Assembly: GCA_016693855.1 (NCBI GenBank)
Contig: GCA_016693855.1_4844.1
DNA length: 45,498 bases
Strand: one strand, 5' to 3'
Source: a phage
Every line of letters starts with the position of its first letter. Position 1 is the stretch's first letter. The notes beneath the pieces were generated by a model. That model was not told the DNA's origin. It saw nothing but the letters and a program-made list of their open reading frames with translations, and ran no database searches. Of the stretch, positions 3,335 through 44,618 are shown in pieces. Position numbers and translations under genes: made by a program.

Positions 3335-3387
3335 CTTGAATCTACATCACCGCCTCGCAGGTGTCAACACCACTGAGATGATATAAT
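3335..3387 (+). promoter_or_regulatory. promoter region with AATCTACATCA motif, GTCAACACC and extended -10 TGATATAAT
   Basis: Motif at 3339-3349; TGATATAAT at 3379-3387; ~20-30 nt upstream of the tail chaperone start; divergent from the minus-strand morons. Confidence 0.5.
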
Positions 3388-3407: not shown

Positions 3408-4130
3408 ATGCAAAACATGAGCAATCGCACGCCACTAACAGAAATCGGAGAGATGCGCATCTCGCTTTCCGACAGGAGTTTTTTCTTCAAGCCATCATTC
3501 CGCGCCATGAATGAAATCGGCACACCAAAGGAAATCGTTGAGGTATACGCTAAGCTCAATGGCATTGACTATGTTGCACCATTACAGCACGTAGAATACC
3601 TGCCATTTGGCGCTCAGATGCAGGTTATGAAGACCATCAGCAAGCCTGTGTATGGTCGTCATGTGCTGAGTGCGGCCTATATCGTAATGCAGTCATGCTG
3701 TGAAGATGATATTTCTGTGCTGATTGGTGGCTGGAAGCCAACGCCGCGCGGCGTGCGATATGTGCCAGGCATCATGCCAGTGAGCGACATTATTATTATT
3801 GCGCGCAACCTGATGCAGCACGGCATCATCGGTAAATCACCACTCAAAGTACCTGAGCGTCTGGAAGAGCAGAGCAAGAAAACAACAAACGAGTTTCATG
3901 CGTCGCAATACATTATCTCAGCACGCACGCATTTCGATATGACGCGAGATGAGGCTGAAAACCTGTCCATGACAGAGTTTCAGATGATGATTAAGAATAA
4001 ATATCCAGAGCCGAAAGGGTTAACGAAAGAAGAGCGCGCGGCAGAGTACGATCAGGCTAAAGCAGACCGTGAGCGCATGAAGGCACTGGCTGAACGCAAA
4101 GCGAAAAAGCGAGGAATACATAATGGCTGA
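3408..4130 (+). CDS. tail assembly chaperone (putative)
   Basis: 240 aa ORF immediately upstream of and overlapping the tape measure gene; highly charged K/E/R-rich C-terminus; assignment by conserved position. Confidence 0.5.
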   Translation: MQNMSNRTPLTEIGEMRISLSDRSFFFKPSFRAMNEIGTPKEIVEVYAKLNGIDYVAPLQHVEYLPFGAQMQVMKTISKPVYGRHVLSAAYIVMQSCCEDDISVLIGGWKPTPRGVRYVPGIMPVSDIIIIARNLMQHGIIGKSPLKVPERLEEQSKKTTNEFHASQYIISARTHFDMTRDEAENLSMTEFQMMIKNKYPEPKGLTKEERAAEYDQAKADRERMKALAERKAKKRGIHNG

Positions 4131-22268: not shown

Positions 22269-22297
22269 TTGACGTAGAATTGTTATTGATGTAGATT
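22269..22297 (+). promoter_or_regulatory. early rightward promoter: TTGACG-N17-TAGATT built from two tandem TTGAYGTAGAWT motif copies
   Basis: TTGACGTAGAAT at 22269-22280 and TTGATGTAGATT at 22286-22297; the TTGACG of copy 1 and TAGATT of copy 2 are spaced 17 nt apart like sigma70 -35/-10 elements; ~30 nt upstream of the first rightward ORF. Confidence 0.5.
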
Positions 22298-24593: not shown

Positions 24594-25082
24594 ATGACGA
24601 AAGAAAGAGATTGGAATGAGGTCTTTGAATATATAGATGGGCGCTTAATTTGGAAGATCAAACCTTGCAATAACGTAAAAGAATACTCACCAGCTGGGTC
24701 AACGCGAAACGATGGCTACCTGCATGTTGGTTTTATGAAAAAACTACATATGGTTCATAGAATTATATGGGAAATGCATAACGGAAAAATACCAGATGGG
24801 ATGGAGATTGACCATGTAAACCATAACAAAATGGACAACAGAATTGAGAATTTGCGGCTTGTTCGGCACGGAAGCAACCAAAGGAATAAATCTAAACAGG
24901 GGAATAACACTAGTGGTGTGACTGGTGTAACATGGAGCAGAAGGGATAAAAAGTGGATTGCGCAGATAATGGTTGAAAGAAAAAACATCCATCTTGGATA
25001 CTTCAGTGACTTCAACTCCGCAGTGGCGGCAAGGAAAAATGCGGAAAAAGAGCATCGCTTTCACAAGAACCATGGTATATAA
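24594..25082 (+). CDS. HNH homing endonuclease with AP2-like domain
   Basis: …HRIIWEMHNGKIPDGMEIDHVNHNKMDNRIENLRLV… HNH motif; …SGVTGVTWSRRDKKWIAQI…LGYFSDFNSAVAARKNAE… AP2-type domain; close paralog of the ORF at 28588-29064. Confidence 0.85.
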   Translation: MTKERDWNEVFEYIDGRLIWKIKPCNNVKEYSPAGSTRNDGYLHVGFMKKLHMVHRIIWEMHNGKIPDGMEIDHVNHNKMDNRIENLRLVRHGSNQRNKSKQGNNTSGVTGVTWSRRDKKWIAQIMVERKNIHLGYFSDFNSAVAARKNAEKEHRFHKNHGI

Positions 25083-28587: not shown

Positions 28588-29064
28588 ATGAACTGGAATG
28601 AACATTTCTCAATAAAATAAGATGGGTTGCACTGGAAGCGAGTTAAAACAAACAGGCAAAAGACGACAAAAGCTGGTTATGTAAGCAATAAAGATGGATA
28701 CGTAAGAGTTATGCTTGATAGTAAATGCTATCTTGCTCACCGTATCATCTGGGAAATGCATAACGGCCCAATACCAGATGGTGTGCAGATCGACCATATC
28801 AACCATATCCGCCATGACAACAGAATTGAAAACCTTAGATTGGTAAGTAATCAGGATAACCAGAAGAACACAAAGAGGAGCAGAAATAACAAATCTGGTG
28901 TAACTGGTGTTTGCTGGTACCCAGCATATGAGAAGTGGAGAGCGTACATCTGCATAGATGGAAAGCAAATAACTCTTGGGTATTTTTCAAGTATCAAGTC
29001 AGTAGCAACAGCAAGAAAGGAAGCTGAGCTAAGATATGACTTTCACAAGAACCACGGCGCTTGA
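28588..29064 (+). pseudogene. HNH-AP2 homing endonuclease interrupted by in-frame TAA at codon 11 (pseudogene, or expressed from downstream TTG 28627)
   Basis: ATG 28588 with GAGGG RBS; reads MNWNEHFSIK-TAA(28618-28620)-DGLHWKRVK…, which aligns with the intact N-terminus of the 24594 paralog (…DWNEVFEYIDGRLIWKIK…); downstream HNH (…IDHINHIRHDNRIENLRLV…) and AP2 regions are intact. Confidence 0.6.
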
Positions 29065-29074
29065 TGATATAATG

Positions 29075-31448
<2,374 letters not shown>

Positions 31449-31535
31449 GGGCTTTGGTTTATCTTATCAGCATGCACAGAACAAATATTATTATCGCATA
31501 GCACAATATCTCTACGACGCTGAATATTGTTTTAA

Positions 31536-31775
31536 TCATTTCCACGTTTCACTTTTAAATTGGTATCCGCCAGTGCATTCTCGGCATTGAAATTCAGTCC
31601 TTCCATCGCCATATGGGTCAATCATTCCGGTGCCATTACATTTAGGGCAAATTCGCGCATCACCATCAATAACAGCTTGATGAATCTTTGCCGCGCACTG
31701 GTCAGTAAACACATTGCCATCAGATGTCTTCCAGTGTGTTATAGCAATATTTATTTGCTCAGGAAACATAATCAA
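31536..31775 (-). CDS. small zinc-ribbon protein
   Basis: 79 aa; two CxxC pairs (…CPKCNGTG…CRECTGG…); last gene of a minus-strand operon. Confidence 0.45.
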   Translation of the reverse strand: MIMFPEQINIAITHWKTSDGNVFTDQCAAKIHQAVIDGDARICPKCNGTGMIDPYGDGRTEFQCRECTGGYQFKSETWK

Positions 31776-32383
31776 TCCTCCAGTTTCACGCCGGGAATCT
31801 TGCCTGCTGCGATGGCGTCGTAGATAATTTCGTATTCGCTATAAATCCAGTTGTTGCCCTCATCAGCCTCTCTCTGCATTGCCTCTATTGCTGCATCACG
31901 CTTCCCTCCCGCTTCGGATTGGAGTGGTCGGAATTCCCACATTTTTGAATCAAGAGCAGTTGATACTCCGTTACCCCAGAAACCAAACACATGACCGTCA
32001 CAAACAGCAACAACCTTGAATTTATTCCAGTCAACTTGTGAAAATTGCTTACTTTCACATTCGCACCCCACTGGCGGGACGCCTTCGCCGTTCCATGCTG
32101 GCTTTCGCGATAAGGCGAGTGCGGATTCGTATTGGTCACGGGTAACTATTGCTGAGTTGCAATCGTCTGCAATATCATTCTTTCCTTCGAAGAAAATCCA
32201 TTTGCTATTATCGTTGCGGTTATCGCTGTCAACAAACCACCATGACTTACCGCCATTTTTCACCGGCCCTCCAGTGAAAAAATAAAACTTGCTATCGTCA
32301 GCATCCTGAACCACTGACTCAGCACCTTCAGGCCACCCGCCACGCTTAGTTAATTCACGCAATAACAGGTCGATAAGTTTCAT
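31772..32383 (-). CDS. hypothetical protein
   Basis: 203 aa ORF, Trp/Gly-rich, ATGA-coupled to neighbours; no motif recognised. Confidence 0.5.
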   Translation of the reverse strand: MKLIDLLLRELTKRGGWPEGAESVVQDADDSKFYFFTGGPVKNGGKSWWFVDSDNRNDNSKWIFFEGKNDIADDCNSAIVTRDQYESALALSRKPAWNGEGVPPVGCECESKQFSQVDWNKFKVVAVCDGHVFGFWGNGVSTALDSKMWEFRPLQSEAGGKRDAAIEAMQREADEGNNWIYSEYEIIYDAIAAGKIPGVKLED

Positions 32384-32604
32384 TTTGTTTCTCCATCAAA
32401 AAGGATTTCTTTGTATTCATCACTAACTTCATATGCCTTATTTAGTTCGAATACCTCATATGAGTTTTGACCACCTTCGCGCCATGAGTGTTTGTCATTT
32501 AGCTTTGCTGCAACATCATCAGCTTCATGCTTGTGCGGATAAACAGCAACGACATTTGATGAGACGCCGCATTCGATACAACCAACATTAAATACAAGCC
32601 ACAT
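32380..32604 (-). CDS. hypothetical protein
   Basis: 74 aa ORF with CxxC (…GCIECG…). Confidence 0.4.
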   Translation of the reverse strand: MWLVFNVGCIECGVSSNVVAVYPHKHEADDVAAKLNDKHSWREGGQNSYEVFELNKAYEVSDEYKEILFDGETK

Positions 32605-32606
32605 AA

Positions 32607-32891
32607 TTATTCTCCCAATGCCTTATTAACTGCTGCACGCGCATTATCCAGGGCACGACGCTTGCTTGATGTGGTCCAGACTTTGCCGGAGTGGTCGTCG
32701 TAGATTTCCAGTAGTTTCTGGAGTGCTGATAACAGGTCAGGAGATGCCGCAAGTAAAAACCCATTAGCATCTGCCGTCGATTCATCAAGCCATGATGTGA
32801 CAGTGCAAATGTGTCCATCCCTGTCACCTTCATAAACATTAAATGTCTCATCAAAAAACCACGGCCCCGGCGTACCTTTAAATTCTTCCAT
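32607..32891 (-). CDS. hypothetical protein, paralog of 44205-44531 (FKGTxGPW family)
   Basis: Start taken as ATG 32891 (GAGG RBS 8 nt upstream): MEEFKGTPGPW…LLAASPDLLSALQKLL…; shares N- and C-terminal motifs with the ORF at 44205-44531. Confidence 0.5.
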   Translation of the reverse strand: MEEFKGTPGPWFFDETFNVYEGDRDGHICTVTSWLDESTADANGFLLAASPDLLSALQKLLEIYDDHSGKVWTTSSKRRALDNARAAVNKALGE

Positions 32892-33051
32892 CACCAACCT
32901 CACTTAATATATTCAATAATTTCGCATTCACGCATCTGCACCAGACCAAATGGCGCAACAACCTTGCCGCACGGACGTCAAGGTTGAACACTCCGCAGCG
33001 TCCGTTTTCTTTGAATTTGACCATTACCATGACTTATCCCTCGCTAATAAC

Positions 33052-33109
33052 TTGATGTAGATACTATGCACCACCACTCAATCTACGTCAATAGTCATTG
33101 TGATAGAAT
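33052..33109. promoter_or_regulatory. divergent promoter region with inverted motif pair TTGATGTAGATA ... AATCTACGTCAA and extended -10 TGATAGAAT
   Basis: TTGATGTAGATA at 33052-33063 and AATCTACGTCAA at 33080-33091 form an inverted pair; TGATAGAAT at 33101-33109 precedes the lysis operon; on the minus strand TTGACGTAGATT-N-CATAGT could serve the leftward operon. Confidence 0.5.
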
Positions 33110-33135
33110 TAATCATTATTTGAACAGGAGGCAGG

Positions 33136-33414
33136 ATGAAACTATCGCAACGCGGCATGGAGACGCTTGGAATCGCCGATGCAGTGGATATATCGCCTTA
33201 CATCACCACCGAGACAACACAAAATCAGTTTGATGCACTGACAAGCCTCGCCGCCGACATTGGCATTGACACTTTCCGCAAATCAACGCTTCTGAAGAAA
33301 CACAATCTCCGCTGCTTCTCATGTGTCGCCGCGCATTTCATCGTGTGGGGCGAGAAGACTGGCGACAAAGTAAAACGCAAAGCTGAAAAAGAGGTTTACT
33401 GGTATGGCTATTAG
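33136..33414 (+). CDS. lysozyme-like protein with internal deletion of catalytic region (possible remnant)
   Basis: 92 aa; C-terminal half (…TQNQFDALTSLAADIGIDTFRKSTLLKKHNL…FIVWGEKTG…) aligns with the C-terminal lobe of P22 gp19/T4-type lysozymes as I recall them, but ~55 residues including the catalytic Glu/Asp region appear absent. Confidence 0.45.
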   Translation: MKLSQRGMETLGIADAVDISPYITTETTQNQFDALTSLAADIGIDTFRKSTLLKKHNLRCFSCVAAHFIVWGEKTGDKVKRKAEKEVYWYGY

Positions 33415-33868
33415 CAAAAACATGAAGGCGTTTCTGGATATGCTGGCGTACAGTGAAGGCACGGATAACGGGCGACAGAAAACCAATAATCATGGTTATG
33501 ATGTGATTGTTGGCGGCTCGCTGTTTACTGACTATTCCGACCACCCACGCAAGCTGATTAGCCTGCCTAAGCTGGGCATCAAATCCACCGCCGCCGGGCG
33601 CTATCAGGTACTGGCTAAGTTTTATGACGCGTACAAAAAGCAATTGCGTTTACCGGATTTCTCCCCCACATCGCAGGACGCTATTGCAATGCAGCTAATC
33701 CGTGAATGCAAAGCCACTGCCGACATCGAGGCTGGTCGCGTTGCCGATGCCATTCATAAATGCCGTTCACGCTGGGCTTCGTTGCCTGGCGCTGGCTATG
33801 GTCAGCATGAGCAGAAGCTGGATAAGCTGATTCAGGTGTACAATGATGCTGGCGGAGTTGTGGCATGA
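33404..33868 (+). CDS. R: endolysin, lambda R-type lytic transglycosylase
   Basis: 154 aa; near-identical motif blocks to phage lambda R as recalled: …KAFLDMLAYSEGTDNGRQKT.NHGYDVIVGG.LFTDYSDHPRKL… and …WASLPGAGYGQ.E.K…; followed by holin-like and Rz/Rz1 genes. Confidence 0.9.
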   Translation: MAISKNMKAFLDMLAYSEGTDNGRQKTNNHGYDVIVGGSLFTDYSDHPRKLISLPKLGIKSTAAGRYQVLAKFYDAYKKQLRLPDFSPTSQDAIAMQLIRECKATADIEAGRVADAIHKCRSRWASLPGAGYGQHEQKLDKLIQVYNDAGGVVA

Positions 33869-34104
33869 AAAAGCTAAGCAACTGGCTGCTCGCCGCGTGG
33901 ATTTCGTTCTGCTCACTGTTGCAGCTGTGGCCTGATGCAATGATGCATGTGTGGGTAATGATGCCTGATGACCTGAAAGCGGCGCTACCGCCAATCGTGG
34001 TTAAAGGTGTGAGCTACTCAATCATGCTTGTTGGCATCCTCGGCAAAATGCACGGCATGAGGAAGGAAAACCGGAGGCTGCGCGATGATGTCGATTCTCG
34101 CTAA
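33865..34104 (+). CDS. holin-like small membrane protein (putative)
   Basis: 79 aa, two hydrophobic helices (…LSNWLLAAWISFCSLLQLW…, …VSYSIMLVGILG…) and charged C-terminus; ATGA overlap with endolysin stop; located inside the lysis cassette. Confidence 0.4.
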   Translation: MKKLSNWLLAAWISFCSLLQLWPDAMMHVWVMMPDDLKAALPPIVVKGVSYSIMLVGILGKMHGMRKENRRLRDDVDSR

Positions 34105-35721: not shown

Positions 35722-35766
35722 TTGACGTTTCTACATCACTTAGTCAATACTTATTGACGTAGATTG
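35722..35766. promoter_or_regulatory. divergent promoter region with TTGACG / TCTACATCA / TTGACGTAGATT motif copies
   Basis: TTGACG 35722-35727, TTTCTACATCA 35728-35738, TTGACGTAGATT 35755-35766; lies between divergent operons (35694 leftward, 35794 rightward). Confidence 0.5.
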
Positions 35767-42476: not shown

Positions 42477-43013
42477 CTACAGGCGCATCGGCATAACAAC
42501 AATCTTCGCAGTCTCGCCAGATGGCGCACTAAGGCAGCAAACTGCGGCATTTGTATTTCCATTCAGTTCAAATTTGACACCACAGAATTTTGGATTAAAT
42601 AGCTTGGCGCACTTCTCAACATCAGCAAGGTATTTAGCGTTAAATCCGATTTGCTCAGTTGGCGAAGTCTGTTTTGGTATAACGCGATCAATATCAGGGA
42701 ATCGACCGTCAATAATGTTACAGATACCAGCACCTACCATTAACTCTGTATCATCATGGTACGTGACCATTTTTGTTTTGGTATCCAGCACCGCATAATC
42801 ATAGCGCTTAATTGGCGACTTACTGACTGATACAATGACGCTGTCTGTCAGTTTGTTGTCGTGCTTGCCACCAACAAACATCCTATGCCCATCAGTTGAC
42901 GCAACGCGACCATCTGGCATGAAGCAAATACCGTTCAGATAGTAACGCACATCATTCTTTGCCTGAAACATCAATGCGCCTTCGAGTAATAACTTGCTGA
43001 TTTTTAATTTCAT
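42477..43013 (-). CDS. truncated DNA polymerase III beta sliding-clamp (DnaN) homolog
   Basis: 178 aa from ATG 43013 (AAGGTG RBS). Ordered matches to E. coli DnaN as I recall it: FQAKNDVRYYLNG (DnaN ~150), ASTDGHRMF (~172), DGRFPDIDRVIPK (~240-253), IGFNAKYLADV (~325) and the C-terminal …IVVMPMRL (DnaN ends …YVVMPMRL). Domain I and the first half of domain III are absent. Confidence 0.7.
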   Translation of the reverse strand: MKLKISKLLLEGALMFQAKNDVRYYLNGICFMPDGRVASTDGHRMFVGGKHDNKLTDSVIVSVSKSPIKRYDYAVLDTKTKMVTYHDDTELMVGAGICNIIDGRFPDIDRVIPKQTSPTEQIGFNAKYLADVEKCAKLFNPKFCGVKFELNGNTNAAVCCLSAPSGETAKIVVMPMRL

Positions 43014-43186
43014 CACTTCACCTTAATCATATGTTGTTTTGCAACCTTGAGGCACTCTTCAAAAATGCCACCCTTCTTTGCGCTCTGATTGCGCTTGTAA
43101 TACTGAATTGCCGCATCAATTGCCATCTGGTCGATGTCCGTCAGCTTGGCGCGAAGTTGTTTTTCGATGAATTGTTCTGGTGTCAT
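43013..43186 (-). CDS. hypothetical small protein (57 aa)
   Basis: ATG 43186 with AAGGA RBS; stop overlaps the DnaN-like start (TGATG); below ORF-track size cutoff. Confidence 0.35.
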   Translation of the reverse strand: MTPEQFIEKQLRAKLTDIDQMAIDAAIQYYKRNQSAKKGGIFEECLKVAKQHMIKVK

Positions 43187-43398
43187 TGACTTATCCTTGT
43201 GTCGAATTGAGATTTGTAAAACAAATCAATACTTCCCAATGCTTTGTATTCAAATTTCCCATTCTCGCGGCAAACCCACTTCTCAAACCCATAATTGTCA
43301 TTATTTGCCGTCCATGTTGTCACAGAGAAAAAAACCACTAGCCTGGATTATTGCTCCATTACCATCCCTGTCACCGAACTTTATAATTTTGTAACGCA

Positions 43399-44208
43399 TC
43401 ACATCTTTTCCAGAATTGCCATAACCTCGTGAATATCAGCAACAGGAATCTGGATAAACTCCTCATCCTCTGCCACCACATGACCAGCAGGTAGAATCAC
43501 ATGGTCTGCTGGCTTCAATAACTCGATCAGGCGGTCTACTGGCTTAATCTTTTTCGACTTCAGCACTTTGGCTGTGACCTTGTCCTTGCCTTGTGCTTTG
43601 GCCTCTTCGACTGCCTCGTCGATAACTTTAACCGCATCATCGCCATGTTCACGCGTTACTGCTACGGCATTTGCATAGCTGATTTGTCCTGCACTGATGC
43701 GCGCTTTTACTTCTGCTGGCACATCACCCAGCGACAGGTGCATTTGCACGTCAGATACTGAGCGGCCTACCTTCTTGGCGATTTCTTCATTTGTCCAGCC
43801 AAATCCTTTCAATCGCGTGTAAGCCTTTGCACGCTCAAACGGGTCAAGCTGCTTGCCCTGACTGGATGACACCATGAAGGCGATTTTGTCCGCCTCGTCG
43901 CCAGTGAAATCCTTGCACTCAATGCGAACGATTGGTGCGCCGCGTTCAATGGCTCGTAGTGCACCAAGATAGCGATGCTGACCATCAAGAATGCGGATTC
44001 CTTTGTCGTCAGGGATAACTGTTAATGCTGGCAATGGCTGACCTGATTCCCAGCACTGAGCGAAATATTCAACGTGTTGCTCATCTGCTTCACGGATGTT
44101 ATATCCCGGCTCCAGATAGATTCGCTCCACTGGCACGAGATAGGTTTTGTTAACAGCAATACCGTTGCGCGTTTCTTTGTCTGAATAGATTTTGCTTAGT
44201 GTTTTCAT
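43399..44208 (-). CDS. ParB-like protein (ParB N-terminal nuclease-like domain + HTH)
   Basis: 269 aa; …IRILDGQHRYLGALRA… matches the ParB/Srx-fold arginine-containing box; …FGWTNEEIAKKVGRSVSDVQMHLSL… is HTH-like; no ParA partner in the window. Confidence 0.7.
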   Translation of the reverse strand: MKTLSKIYSDKETRNGIAVNKTYLVPVERIYLEPGYNIREADEQHVEYFAQCWESGQPLPALTVIPDDKGIRILDGQHRYLGALRAIERGAPIVRIECKDFTGDEADKIAFMVSSSQGKQLDPFERAKAYTRLKGFGWTNEEIAKKVGRSVSDVQMHLSLGDVPAEVKARISAGQISYANAVAVTREHGDDAVKVIDEAVEEAKAQGKDKVTAKVLKSKKIKPVDRLIELLKPADHVILPAGHVVAEDEEFIQIPVADIHEVMAILEKM

Positions 44209-44531
44209 TGTTTCTTTCCTAATGCTTTCTTGATAGATTCTTCAGCTAACAGCAATTCTTCTGGGTATTGCTCATTCCAGTTTTGTTTGTATGCCTTGCC
44301 AAGCATTTTTTGCAGAGCTTCAAGCAACTCAGGTGCTGCGGCTATTAACTTTGCATTTGCACGCGTTTCATCAGCCTCTCTGGCATGAACATTTTCATAA
44401 ACAGGTGTTAATACATTTGCCACCTTATATCGATGACCAATAATTGCGCCTCTGATTCTGATGTATGGCTTATCTACTTCTTCTGGTAAAACCTGCCACG
44501 GACCTTTTGTACCTTTGAATTCATCTTTCAT
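44205..44531 (-). CDS. hypothetical protein, paralog of 32607-32891 (FKGTxGPW family)
   Basis: Start taken as ATG 44531 (GAGGTGAG RBS): MKDEFKGTKGPW…LIAAAPELLEALQKML…; first gene of the leftward operon that ends with the DnaN-like gene. Confidence 0.5.
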   Translation of the reverse strand: MKDEFKGTKGPWQVLPEEVDKPYIRIRGAIIGHRYKVANVLTPVYENVHAREADETRANAKLIAAAPELLEALQKMLGKAYKQNWNEQYPEELLLAEESIKKALGKKQ

Positions 44532-44557
44532 ATCACTCACCTCTAACATTTATTGTT

Positions 44558-44618
44558 GTTTCTACGTCACTAACTATAAACGCACCATCAATCTACGTCA
44601 ACAGGAATGTGCTAAAAT
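44558..44618. promoter_or_regulatory. divergent promoter region with TTTCTACGTCA and AATCTACGTCAA motif copies and extended -10 TGCTAAAAT
   Basis: Motif copies at 44558-44570 and 44590-44601; TGCTAAAAT at 44610-44618 ahead of a 39-aa basic ORF (44649-44768). Confidence 0.5.

Follow-up and report, generated by a model that had tools for sequence, protein, structure and literature searches.

Our comparative analyses of a 45,498-nucleotide (nt) phage contig, GCA_016693855.1_4844.1, point to a small leftward operon at 31536-32891 as a conserved, dispensable accessory operon of the ea/exo-xis kind, diversified by recombination. This stretch of DNA as a whole is referred to as the window, and all positions are counted along it. 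The operon lies on the minus strand between the head-morphogenesis and the lysis genes and carries four open reading frames (ORFs), named gA to gD, downstream of the remnant of a fifth, gene A. We consider this reading probable, with substantial room for doubt, and hold a role in counter-defence specifically to be a tentative possibility, short of probable. The features on which the argument relies are the following:

32607-32891, minus strand: gA, 94 amino acids (aa), PF27050 / phrog_1273
32380-32604, minus strand: gB, 74 aa, distantly DUF7336-like, optional cargo
31772-32383, minus strand: gC, 203 aa, phrog_7798
31536-31769, minus strand: gD, 77 aa from the ATG at 31769 (the start used by relatives), 79 aa from a TTG at 31775; optional cargo
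32878-33030, minus strand: gene A remnant, phrog_21280, frameshifted, with ribosome-binding site GAGGGA and ATG at 33030
33052-33091, minus strand: predicted promoter/operator module, from a consensus scan and inverted half-sites
31433-31455, both strands: predicted bidirectional intrinsic terminator, a stem-loop with T-runs
44205-44549, minus strand: gA paralogue, PF27050 / phrog_1273, first gene of an operon with ParB-like and clamp-like genes

A conserved expression unit with varying contents

For the region 31000-34000, matches at 87-91% identity were found in Skatevirus-like siphophages infecting Salmonella and Escherichia coli (INT55, Akira, Skate, swi2, C1 and the BASEL phage Bas78), with only 59-72% of the query covered. 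The best match over 23.5 kilobases (kb) is Escherichia phage swi2 (73% coverage, 89.8% identity). Since coverage is partial and identity to the nearest relatives is about 90%, the window phage represents a new species-level Skatevirus-like siphophage. Its published relatives are called lytic in the titles of the papers that describe them. For the comparison of the locus, the interval from the head-morphogenesis gene to the first lysis gene was taken from 11 relatives. In three of them (Lewi, 64795_sal3 and one metagenome contig), the head-morphogenesis protein shares no more than ~50% identity with that of the window.

The core leftward order, with gene A followed by the PF27050 gene (gA) and the phrog_7798 gene (gC), is kept in 10 of the 11 relatives; 64795_sal3 has no PF27050 gene, and its phrog_7798 gene comes right after gene A. 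Klebsiella phage KP591P1 has a cassette at the same place with a gC homologue and the same arrangement. Promoter, gene A, phrog_7798 gene and terminator are found at all 12 related loci examined, and the PF27050 gene at all but one. There are three slots for optional small genes, one ahead of gene A, a second separating gA from gC and a third following gC. Neither in the 11 relatives nor in the Klebsiella phage does the head-morphogenesis gene abut the lysis genes. Because gene A, the phrog_7798 gene and the near-invariant promoter are present in every relative, including those with a head-morphogenesis protein only ~50% identical, the comparison indicates that the group inherited the complete cassette from its ancestor, that it is not an insertion, and that only gB and gD behave as cargo.

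The four ORFs are co-directional, separated by 2-nt gaps (gA/gB and gC/gD) or joined by a 4-nt ATGA overlap (gB/gC), and the GC skew becomes negative across the operon. PHROG profiles are matched by gA (phrog_1273, E 2.2e-17), gC (phrog_7798, E 4.5e-58) and gD (phrog_12574, E 7e-10). Because of these matches and of the 165 relatives of gB among 50%-identity cluster representatives, we take all four to be real genes.

A sigma-70-like promoter is predicted on the minus strand (-35 TTGACG at 33091-33086, a 17-nt spacer and -10 CATAGT at 33068-33063), bracketed by the inverted half-sites TTGACGTAGAT (33091-33081) and ATCTACATCAA (33062-33052). Two copies of the motif TGAYGTAGA, at 33091-33052, flank the -35 element and the start site. 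This motif is the core of the 13-mer TTGACGTAGATTG, which has three exact copies (33091-33079 and 44601-44589, minus strand; 35754-35766, plus strand); the core itself is present 11 times in the window against 0.62 copies expected, so that it is not a chance occurrence. Most copies are paired at divergent control regions (pairs at 22270-22295, 33053-33090, 35730-35763 and 44561-44600; singles at 3341, 15419 and 27254). The members of a pair, in inverted or direct orientation, are 17-31 nt apart, an arrangement that resembles an operator for a regulator encoded by the phage. Nine of ten relatives, distant ones included, have the 45-nt promoter module almost unchanged, and it is more conserved than the genes downstream of it. 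Back to back with it, at 33094-33135 on the plus strand, the rightward lysis genes have an apparent extended -10 promoter (TGTGATAGAAT) that is kept in all relatives.

At the other end, the terminator is a predicted 9-base-pair, GC-rich stem-loop (fold -16.4 kcal/mol, z -2.9) common to the operon and to the rightward head-morphogenesis gene, whose stop codon sits in the stem. The DNA flanking it (31400-31552) is 91-96% identical in relatives. Coordinates and junctions thus confirm a preliminary description, made from the sequence alone, of four tightly coupled minus-strand genes in a plus-strand late region, and the divergent motif-bearing promoter and bidirectional terminator that it had proposed are both supported by prediction.

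The same description had seen in the locus an inserted moron cassette. A moron, in the definition reportedly due to Juhala, Hendrix and colleagues, is a gene with its own promoter and terminator placed between genes that are adjacent in related phages. In its strict form, this explanation would make the operon a foreign cassette between head and lysis genes, expressed independently of the phage programme to the benefit of host or phage. It accounts well for an autonomous unit that runs from its own predicted promoter to its own predicted terminator, on the strand opposite to its late-region neighbours, and for the low GC content of gB and gD and their presence in few relatives. Unlike in morons, the unit belongs to all relatives, which lack the expected state with adjacent flanking genes; only its internal genes vary, and the optional ones, gB and gD, lack separate promoters and terminators. 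The description of the relatives as lytic, at least in paper titles, also goes against it, as does the promoter, which would be part of the phage programme because its motif recurs at other control regions of the genome. We find a strict moron improbable. The proposal of modular accessory content holds, in the sense of an autonomous leftward unit whose gene content varies between relatives. Late structural genes at this place in relatives, which the preliminary description had named as evidence that would count against it, were looked for, and none of the relatives examined has structural genes at the locus.

In some relatives, a homing-endonuclease-like gene (DUF723 / T5orf172 / MUG113) lies beside the cassette, either in the gap between cassette and head-morphogenesis gene or in that between head-morphogenesis and portal genes (relatives L011, 3971-5059; L012, 5127-6176; L010, 2925-4013); there is none there in the window.

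Block mosaicism in gC and gA

gC has ~2,200 homologues, none above 76% identity. In an alignment of 118 of them, picked by similarity to the query, conserved blocks (residues 1-22, 79-110, 151-166 and 188-203, with mean pairwise identities of 84, 73, 69 and 89%) alternate with hypervariable ones (23-78, 111-150 and 167-187, with 23, 26 and 40%). Each variable block comes in 22-27 discrete types, associated in 85 combinations in the 118 sequences; because the set was chosen by query similarity, the type frequencies are biased, which leaves the reassortment itself unaffected. The pairing of variable blocks 1 and 2 found in the window is unique in this set. gA shares this design of conserved and hypervariable blocks, with one exchanged block against three in gC: its N-terminal MEEFKGTPGPW (MxEFKGTPGPW in the family) is followed by a hypervariable beta-meander and by a C-terminal half (residues 46-94) in which most alignment columns are at least 90% conserved.

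The same pattern is seen in the DNA, where similarity is confined to islands (31400-31552, 31774-31825, 32054-32134, 32322-32394, 32610-32757, 32889-33030 and 33039-33140) of 80-97% identity, with no detectable similarity between them in most relatives. Because the identity of the islands is about that of the rest of the genome, the pattern indicates that recombination has replaced segments at conserved joints, several of which fall within genes. A diversity-generating retroelement was considered as the source of variability and ruled out, the variable blocks being discrete unrelated types and not scattered point changes. This mosaicism fits the long-known modular model of phage evolution, which is said to go back to Susskind and Botstein, and linker sequences stand at module boundaries in lambdoid phages. 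As in that model, islands of high identity separate dissimilar segments that reassort among relatives. By contrast, since several joints fall within ORFs, protein sub-domains are exchanged here and not whole genes only; such within-gene joints are the less common feature.

The model of gC (predicted local distance difference test, pLDDT, 79; predicted template modelling score 0.50) places helices in the conserved blocks, whereas variable blocks 1 and 2 take on beta structure. Together with fold searches, it suggests an SH3/Tudor/Sm-like beta-barrel in the central domain (~105-155). In the model of gA (pLDDT 77), three short strands precede three helices, there is no long coiled coil, and a fold search gave no meaningful structural neighbour. 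Protein Data Bank (PDB) sequence searches with the cassette proteins, as single sequences and as profiles, found no meaningful solved relative, and scans of all of them against Pfam, NCBIfam and PADLOC found nothing above threshold. Family, profile, PDB and fold searches yielded no enzyme or structural-protein signature, and a literature search by PHROG, Pfam and DUF identifiers gave nothing informative. In many Klebsiella siphophages (e.g. RCIP0030 and vB_Kpn_F14), the two halves of gC, 1-110 and 96-203, are matched separately, as what may be separate genes or other fusions.

A disrupted gene A precedes gA

The gene with the FKGTPGPW motif, gA, had been taken for the first of the operon. Between it and the promoter lies a fifth ORF (33030-32878) with a strong ribosome-binding site, the remnant of gene A. 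In 10 relatives, gene A has an intact 47-aa core (MVMVKFKENGRCGVF..LEQIKIRPCGKVVAPFGLVQMRECEIIEYIK; phrog_21280, E 2e-36), and the eleventh, Bas81, has a divergent form of 46 aa; no other coding sequence in the cassette is as well conserved. The window, alone among the 10 aligned genomes (itself and nine relatives), misses 13 nt (GCAAATCAAAATC) after codon 18, at 32978/32977. The resulting frameshift makes the ORF run into the start of gA, and the match of its product to the 47-position profile covers positions 1-18 only; the ancestral stop codon would fall at 32902-32900, 8 nt ahead of the gA ATG. The deletion would reflect either a natural pseudogene or an error of assembly; searches of viral and metagenome contig collections did not recover its junction sequence.

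gB and gD as optional cargo

gB is found in only 12 phage records. The middle slot is taken by a gene 97% identical to it in Bas81, and by one of ~75% identity in INT55, Akira, swi2 and a small number of further phages. Across 47 relatives, only G8, C9, E11 and C12, within IGCIECG, are invariant or nearly so, together with a GGQNxFEVF motif; the histidines vary, and metal ligands beyond this one CxxC are not conserved. With a single conserved CxxC and no conserved histidine, gB is therefore not a four-ligand zinc ribbon. DUF7336 (PF24024) is matched by 19 of these 47 relatives (best E 2.1e-8) and not by the window gB itself at E up to 0.01, which suggests a distant relationship to this family.

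gD has only four clusters in a collection of 5.8 billion proteins. Among Skate-like phages, we found it only in Lewi and one metagenome contig, in the last slot; distant homologues occur in Kuttervirus and jumbo phages. It contains two CxxC pairs, CPKCNGTG and CRECTGGY, of which C43/C46 and C64/C67 are kept in the Lewi and metagenome homologues, while C28 is not. Its Pfam matches, to Anti-TRAP (PF15777; E 7e-5, 23.1 bits against a cut-off of 32) and DnaJ_CXXCXGXG (PF00684), are sub-threshold; no zinc-finger family scores above its curated cut-off and all others score below Anti-TRAP. We predict a small zinc-finger protein with DnaJ/anti-TRAP-type motifs. It resembles the cysteine-rich domain of DnaJ and anti-TRAP (RtpA) in its CxxCxGxG-type motifs and small size; unlike them, it scores below the cut-offs and has two motifs only, the second off-consensus, and a ~40-residue N-terminal extension. 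Of the two Cys-cluster proteins of zinc-ribbon type announced by the preliminary description, gD with its two conserved CxxC pairs remains, whereas gB with one does not.

The GC contents of gB (38.7%) and gD (42.3%) contrast with those of the window (46.5%) and of the flanking late genes (51-52%); lower GC is common to the cargo genes and the variable blocks.

The gA paralogue and the second leftward operon

The relationship between gA and the first gene of a second leftward operon (42477-44549, minus strand), already noticed in the preliminary description, is well founded: the two proteins share 38% identity (E 8e-11) and the same PHROG, which the paralogue matches with E 3.2e-23. The PF27050 (Phage_P22_Y8K6) assignment comes from the precomputed annotation of gA homologues, not from direct scoring of gA. 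The paralogue has a promoter of the same type as the cassette (44601-44573), and its positional homologue in swi2 is only 34% identical. In one homologue, P0198, the central segment of the second-locus paralogue of the window is joined to the C-terminus of the first locus; because it combines segments of both paralogues, it indicates that exchange also takes place between the two paralogous loci.

The second operon had been interpreted as another accessory cassette, with the duplicated leader gene as the mark of such cassettes. Neither idea fits. Among relatives, the PF27050 gene is second to fourth in the operon, and the products of the second operon include a ParB-like protein (HTH_ParB; phrog_1033, E 7e-91) as well as one of 179 aa that weakly matches DNA polymerase III beta-clamp domains, which argues for functions in DNA metabolism and not for accessory cargo. 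The 179-aa protein falls in phrog_3007, whose label as a 'RusA-like resolvase' looks doubtful.

A 103-nt direct repeat (76% identity) occurs elsewhere in the window, at 24748-24850 and 28730-28832, 4 kb apart, in the neighbourhood of the large-terminase gene and ahead of that for the portal. No Rfam families or transfer RNAs were found in the window.

Dispensable homologues in seszw

The Skatevirus seszw has been the object of iterative genome reduction based on clustered regularly interspaced short palindromic repeats (PMC9825161). In the numbering of that paper, its cassette corresponds to genes 69-74, with 70, 72 and 73 as the homologues of gC, gA and gene A. A fragment with genes 69-71 was lost spontaneously, and genes missing from isolated mutants are non-essential by the criterion of the authors (PMC9825161). 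We deduced the deletions from the deposited mutant genome records. Many mutants keep only 35% of the 2-kb cassette interval; seszw_300S is without genes 69-72 and seszw_150S without 69-70, and both keep 73 and 74. Because mutants without genes 69-72 are viable, the gA and gC homologues, as distinct from the genes of the window phage itself, are dispensable for growth on the laboratory host of seszw. Such dispensability is uninformative for other hosts, as the authors note (PMC9825161).

These mutants bear on two further explanations. Late accessory proteins for head assembly or lysis would be in keeping with a location between the head-morphogenesis and lysis genes. The opposite strand, the separate predicted promoter and terminator, the viability of seszw mutants deleted for the homologues, the location of homologues in early regions of temperate phages and the lack of matches to structural-protein families all speak against them, and we come close to discounting this explanation. 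Exclusion genes are common in the early-left operons of P22 and lambda, and the cassette might likewise serve competition between phages or superinfection exclusion, its variability coming from an arms race with other phages. In its favour are the dispensability of the seszw homologues in single-phage laboratory growth, the hypervariable, reassorting blocks and the place of homologues in the early regions of temperate phages. Since the Pfam, PHROG, NCBIfam and PADLOC scans revealed no membrane segments or known exclusion domains, this role seems very unlikely to us.

Homologues in the early regions of temperate phages

In the P22-like phage BTP1, the gC homologue gp20 closes an ea region with EaE, EaA and an Ead/Ea22-like gene and immediately precedes xis and int. 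The homologue of Erwinia phage phiEt88, gp34, has RecT/exonuclease genes on one side and xis/int on the other, with an Eae-like gene nearby, and is translationally coupled to a DksA-like zinc-finger gene. Both places belong to the early-left regions, which are non-essential. Small-gene clusters elsewhere in swi2, which is ~90% identical over 73% of this half of the window, are annotated as EaE-like and as Lar-like restriction-alleviation genes. For gA, an hhalign comparison of the family with the N-terminus of BTP1 gp24 (Ead/Ea22-like) gave a probability of 84.5% (E 7e-6, 50 columns), aligning TPGPW, the strands and ANAxxIAA. Neither gA nor its paralogue matches PF13935 (Ead_Ea22) at E up to 1, whereas BTP1 gp24 does so at 1.9e-27, and judging from the model the 94-aa gA has neither the central coiled coil nor the C-terminal domain of Ead/Ea22. 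It is likely that gA and Ead/Ea22 share an N-terminal domain without belonging to one family.

The cassette thus resembles the exo-xis/ea regions of lambdoid and P22-like phages, probably also in the way it functions, as a single operon of small non-essential genes of unknown function, with gC homologues inside such regions in BTP1 and phiEt88 and a probably Ead/Ea22-like N-terminus in gA. Ea22 itself is modular, with variable segments and preserved function (PMC7093339), an architecture comparable to that of gA and gC. The lambda exo-xis genes are among the earliest transcribed, Ea22 being very early (PMC10834534). By contrast, the cassette belongs to lytic siphophages and is placed between head and lysis modules instead of recombination and integration genes; it has its own predicted promoter and terminator and no long antiterminated pL transcript. 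From the promoter type and the location of the homologues in temperate phages, we consider that the operon is probably expressed early.

These resemblances also raise the alternative that the products modulate the development of the phage itself (timing, replication or lysis via host physiology), like lambda Ea22/exo-xis, and have no part in counter-defence. The position of the gC homologues and the N-terminus of gA agree with this alternative, as do the modularity of Ea22 with preserved function (PMC7093339), its very early transcription (PMC10834534) and the gA paralogue at the head of an operon with ParB-like and clamp-like genes. However, Ea22 reportedly favours lysogeny, a role without equivalent in lytic phages; gA lacks the PF13935 match, the coiled coil and the C-terminal domain; and the extreme diversity of modules is harder to explain with a conserved target in host or phage. 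We regard developmental modulation as unlikely, though deserving of attention.

Proposed mode of action and significance

Coming back to the favoured reading of a conserved, dispensable accessory operon, its functioning is best pictured as follows. As predicted from sequence, host sigma-70 RNA polymerase would start at the TTGACG-17-CATAGT promoter and transcribe ~1.6 kb leftward up to the intrinsic terminator. The close spacing and overlaps, visible in the sequence, couple the translation of gene A (broken here), gA, gB, gC and gD, and a phage regulator would probably bind the paired TGAYGTAGA sites and time expression. Structure models and motifs suggest that the products are small non-enzymatic binding modules: a beta-meander with a helical bundle (gA), an SH3/Tudor-like barrel on a conserved, largely helical scaffold (gC), a CxxC knuckle and a DnaJ/anti-TRAP-type zinc finger. 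Most likely, they would bind variable host factors for takeover or counter-defence, the variable blocks carrying the specificity and the conserved blocks acting as structural scaffold and recombination joints. The mosaic suggests that co-infecting relatives reassort variable modules and optional genes at the conserved DNA islands.

Several points weigh against this interpretation. The early timing depends only on the promoter type and the positions of the temperate-phage homologues, and the promoter type seems uninformative on timing: because host-type promoters are not confined to the leftward operons but apparently also serve the lysis genes, the argument from promoter type is weakened. In seszw, the promoter module misses 18 nt and, with them, the spacer between TTGACG and the -10 element (L004, Seszw_1, ~3640-3700), so that expression may not be alike in all relatives. 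Gene A, the best conserved member of the cassette, is broken in the window, and either the core function of the operon is already impaired here or the assembly is in error. Finally, no member of the five gene families has a tested function, and the PADLOC scan of the cassette proteins found no match to a defence-related system.

A bolder proposal is that gA and gC are scaffold-plus-cartridge proteins, in which a conserved core holds one (gA) or three (gC) exchangeable specificity modules and in-frame islands act as joints, with co-infecting Skate-like phages continually reassorting specificities against variable host factors such as defence systems. We judge it speculative and rather unlikely; if true, it would be a case of recombination-based diversification of early phage proteins, operating also between two paralogous loci.

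The locus represents ordinary phage accessory gene content, and the practical value of our results lies in annotation: its genes should be labelled neither as morons nor as structural genes, and the upstream 47-aa gene should be annotated and, in this genome, flagged as disrupted. Material for experiments already exists in the viable seszw deletion mutants and in Bas77-81, five Skate-like phages of the BASEL collection; the cassettes of Bas78 and Bas81, the two that we examined, are not made up of the same genes. A link between module types and host range or sensitivity to defence could provide a first function for the large families PF27050, phrog_7798 and DUF7336. If the favoured reading is correct, the operon would be a compact example, convenient for experiments, of lytic enterobacterial siphophages that hold on to one expression slot, made of promoter, scaffold genes and terminator, while swapping its contents.

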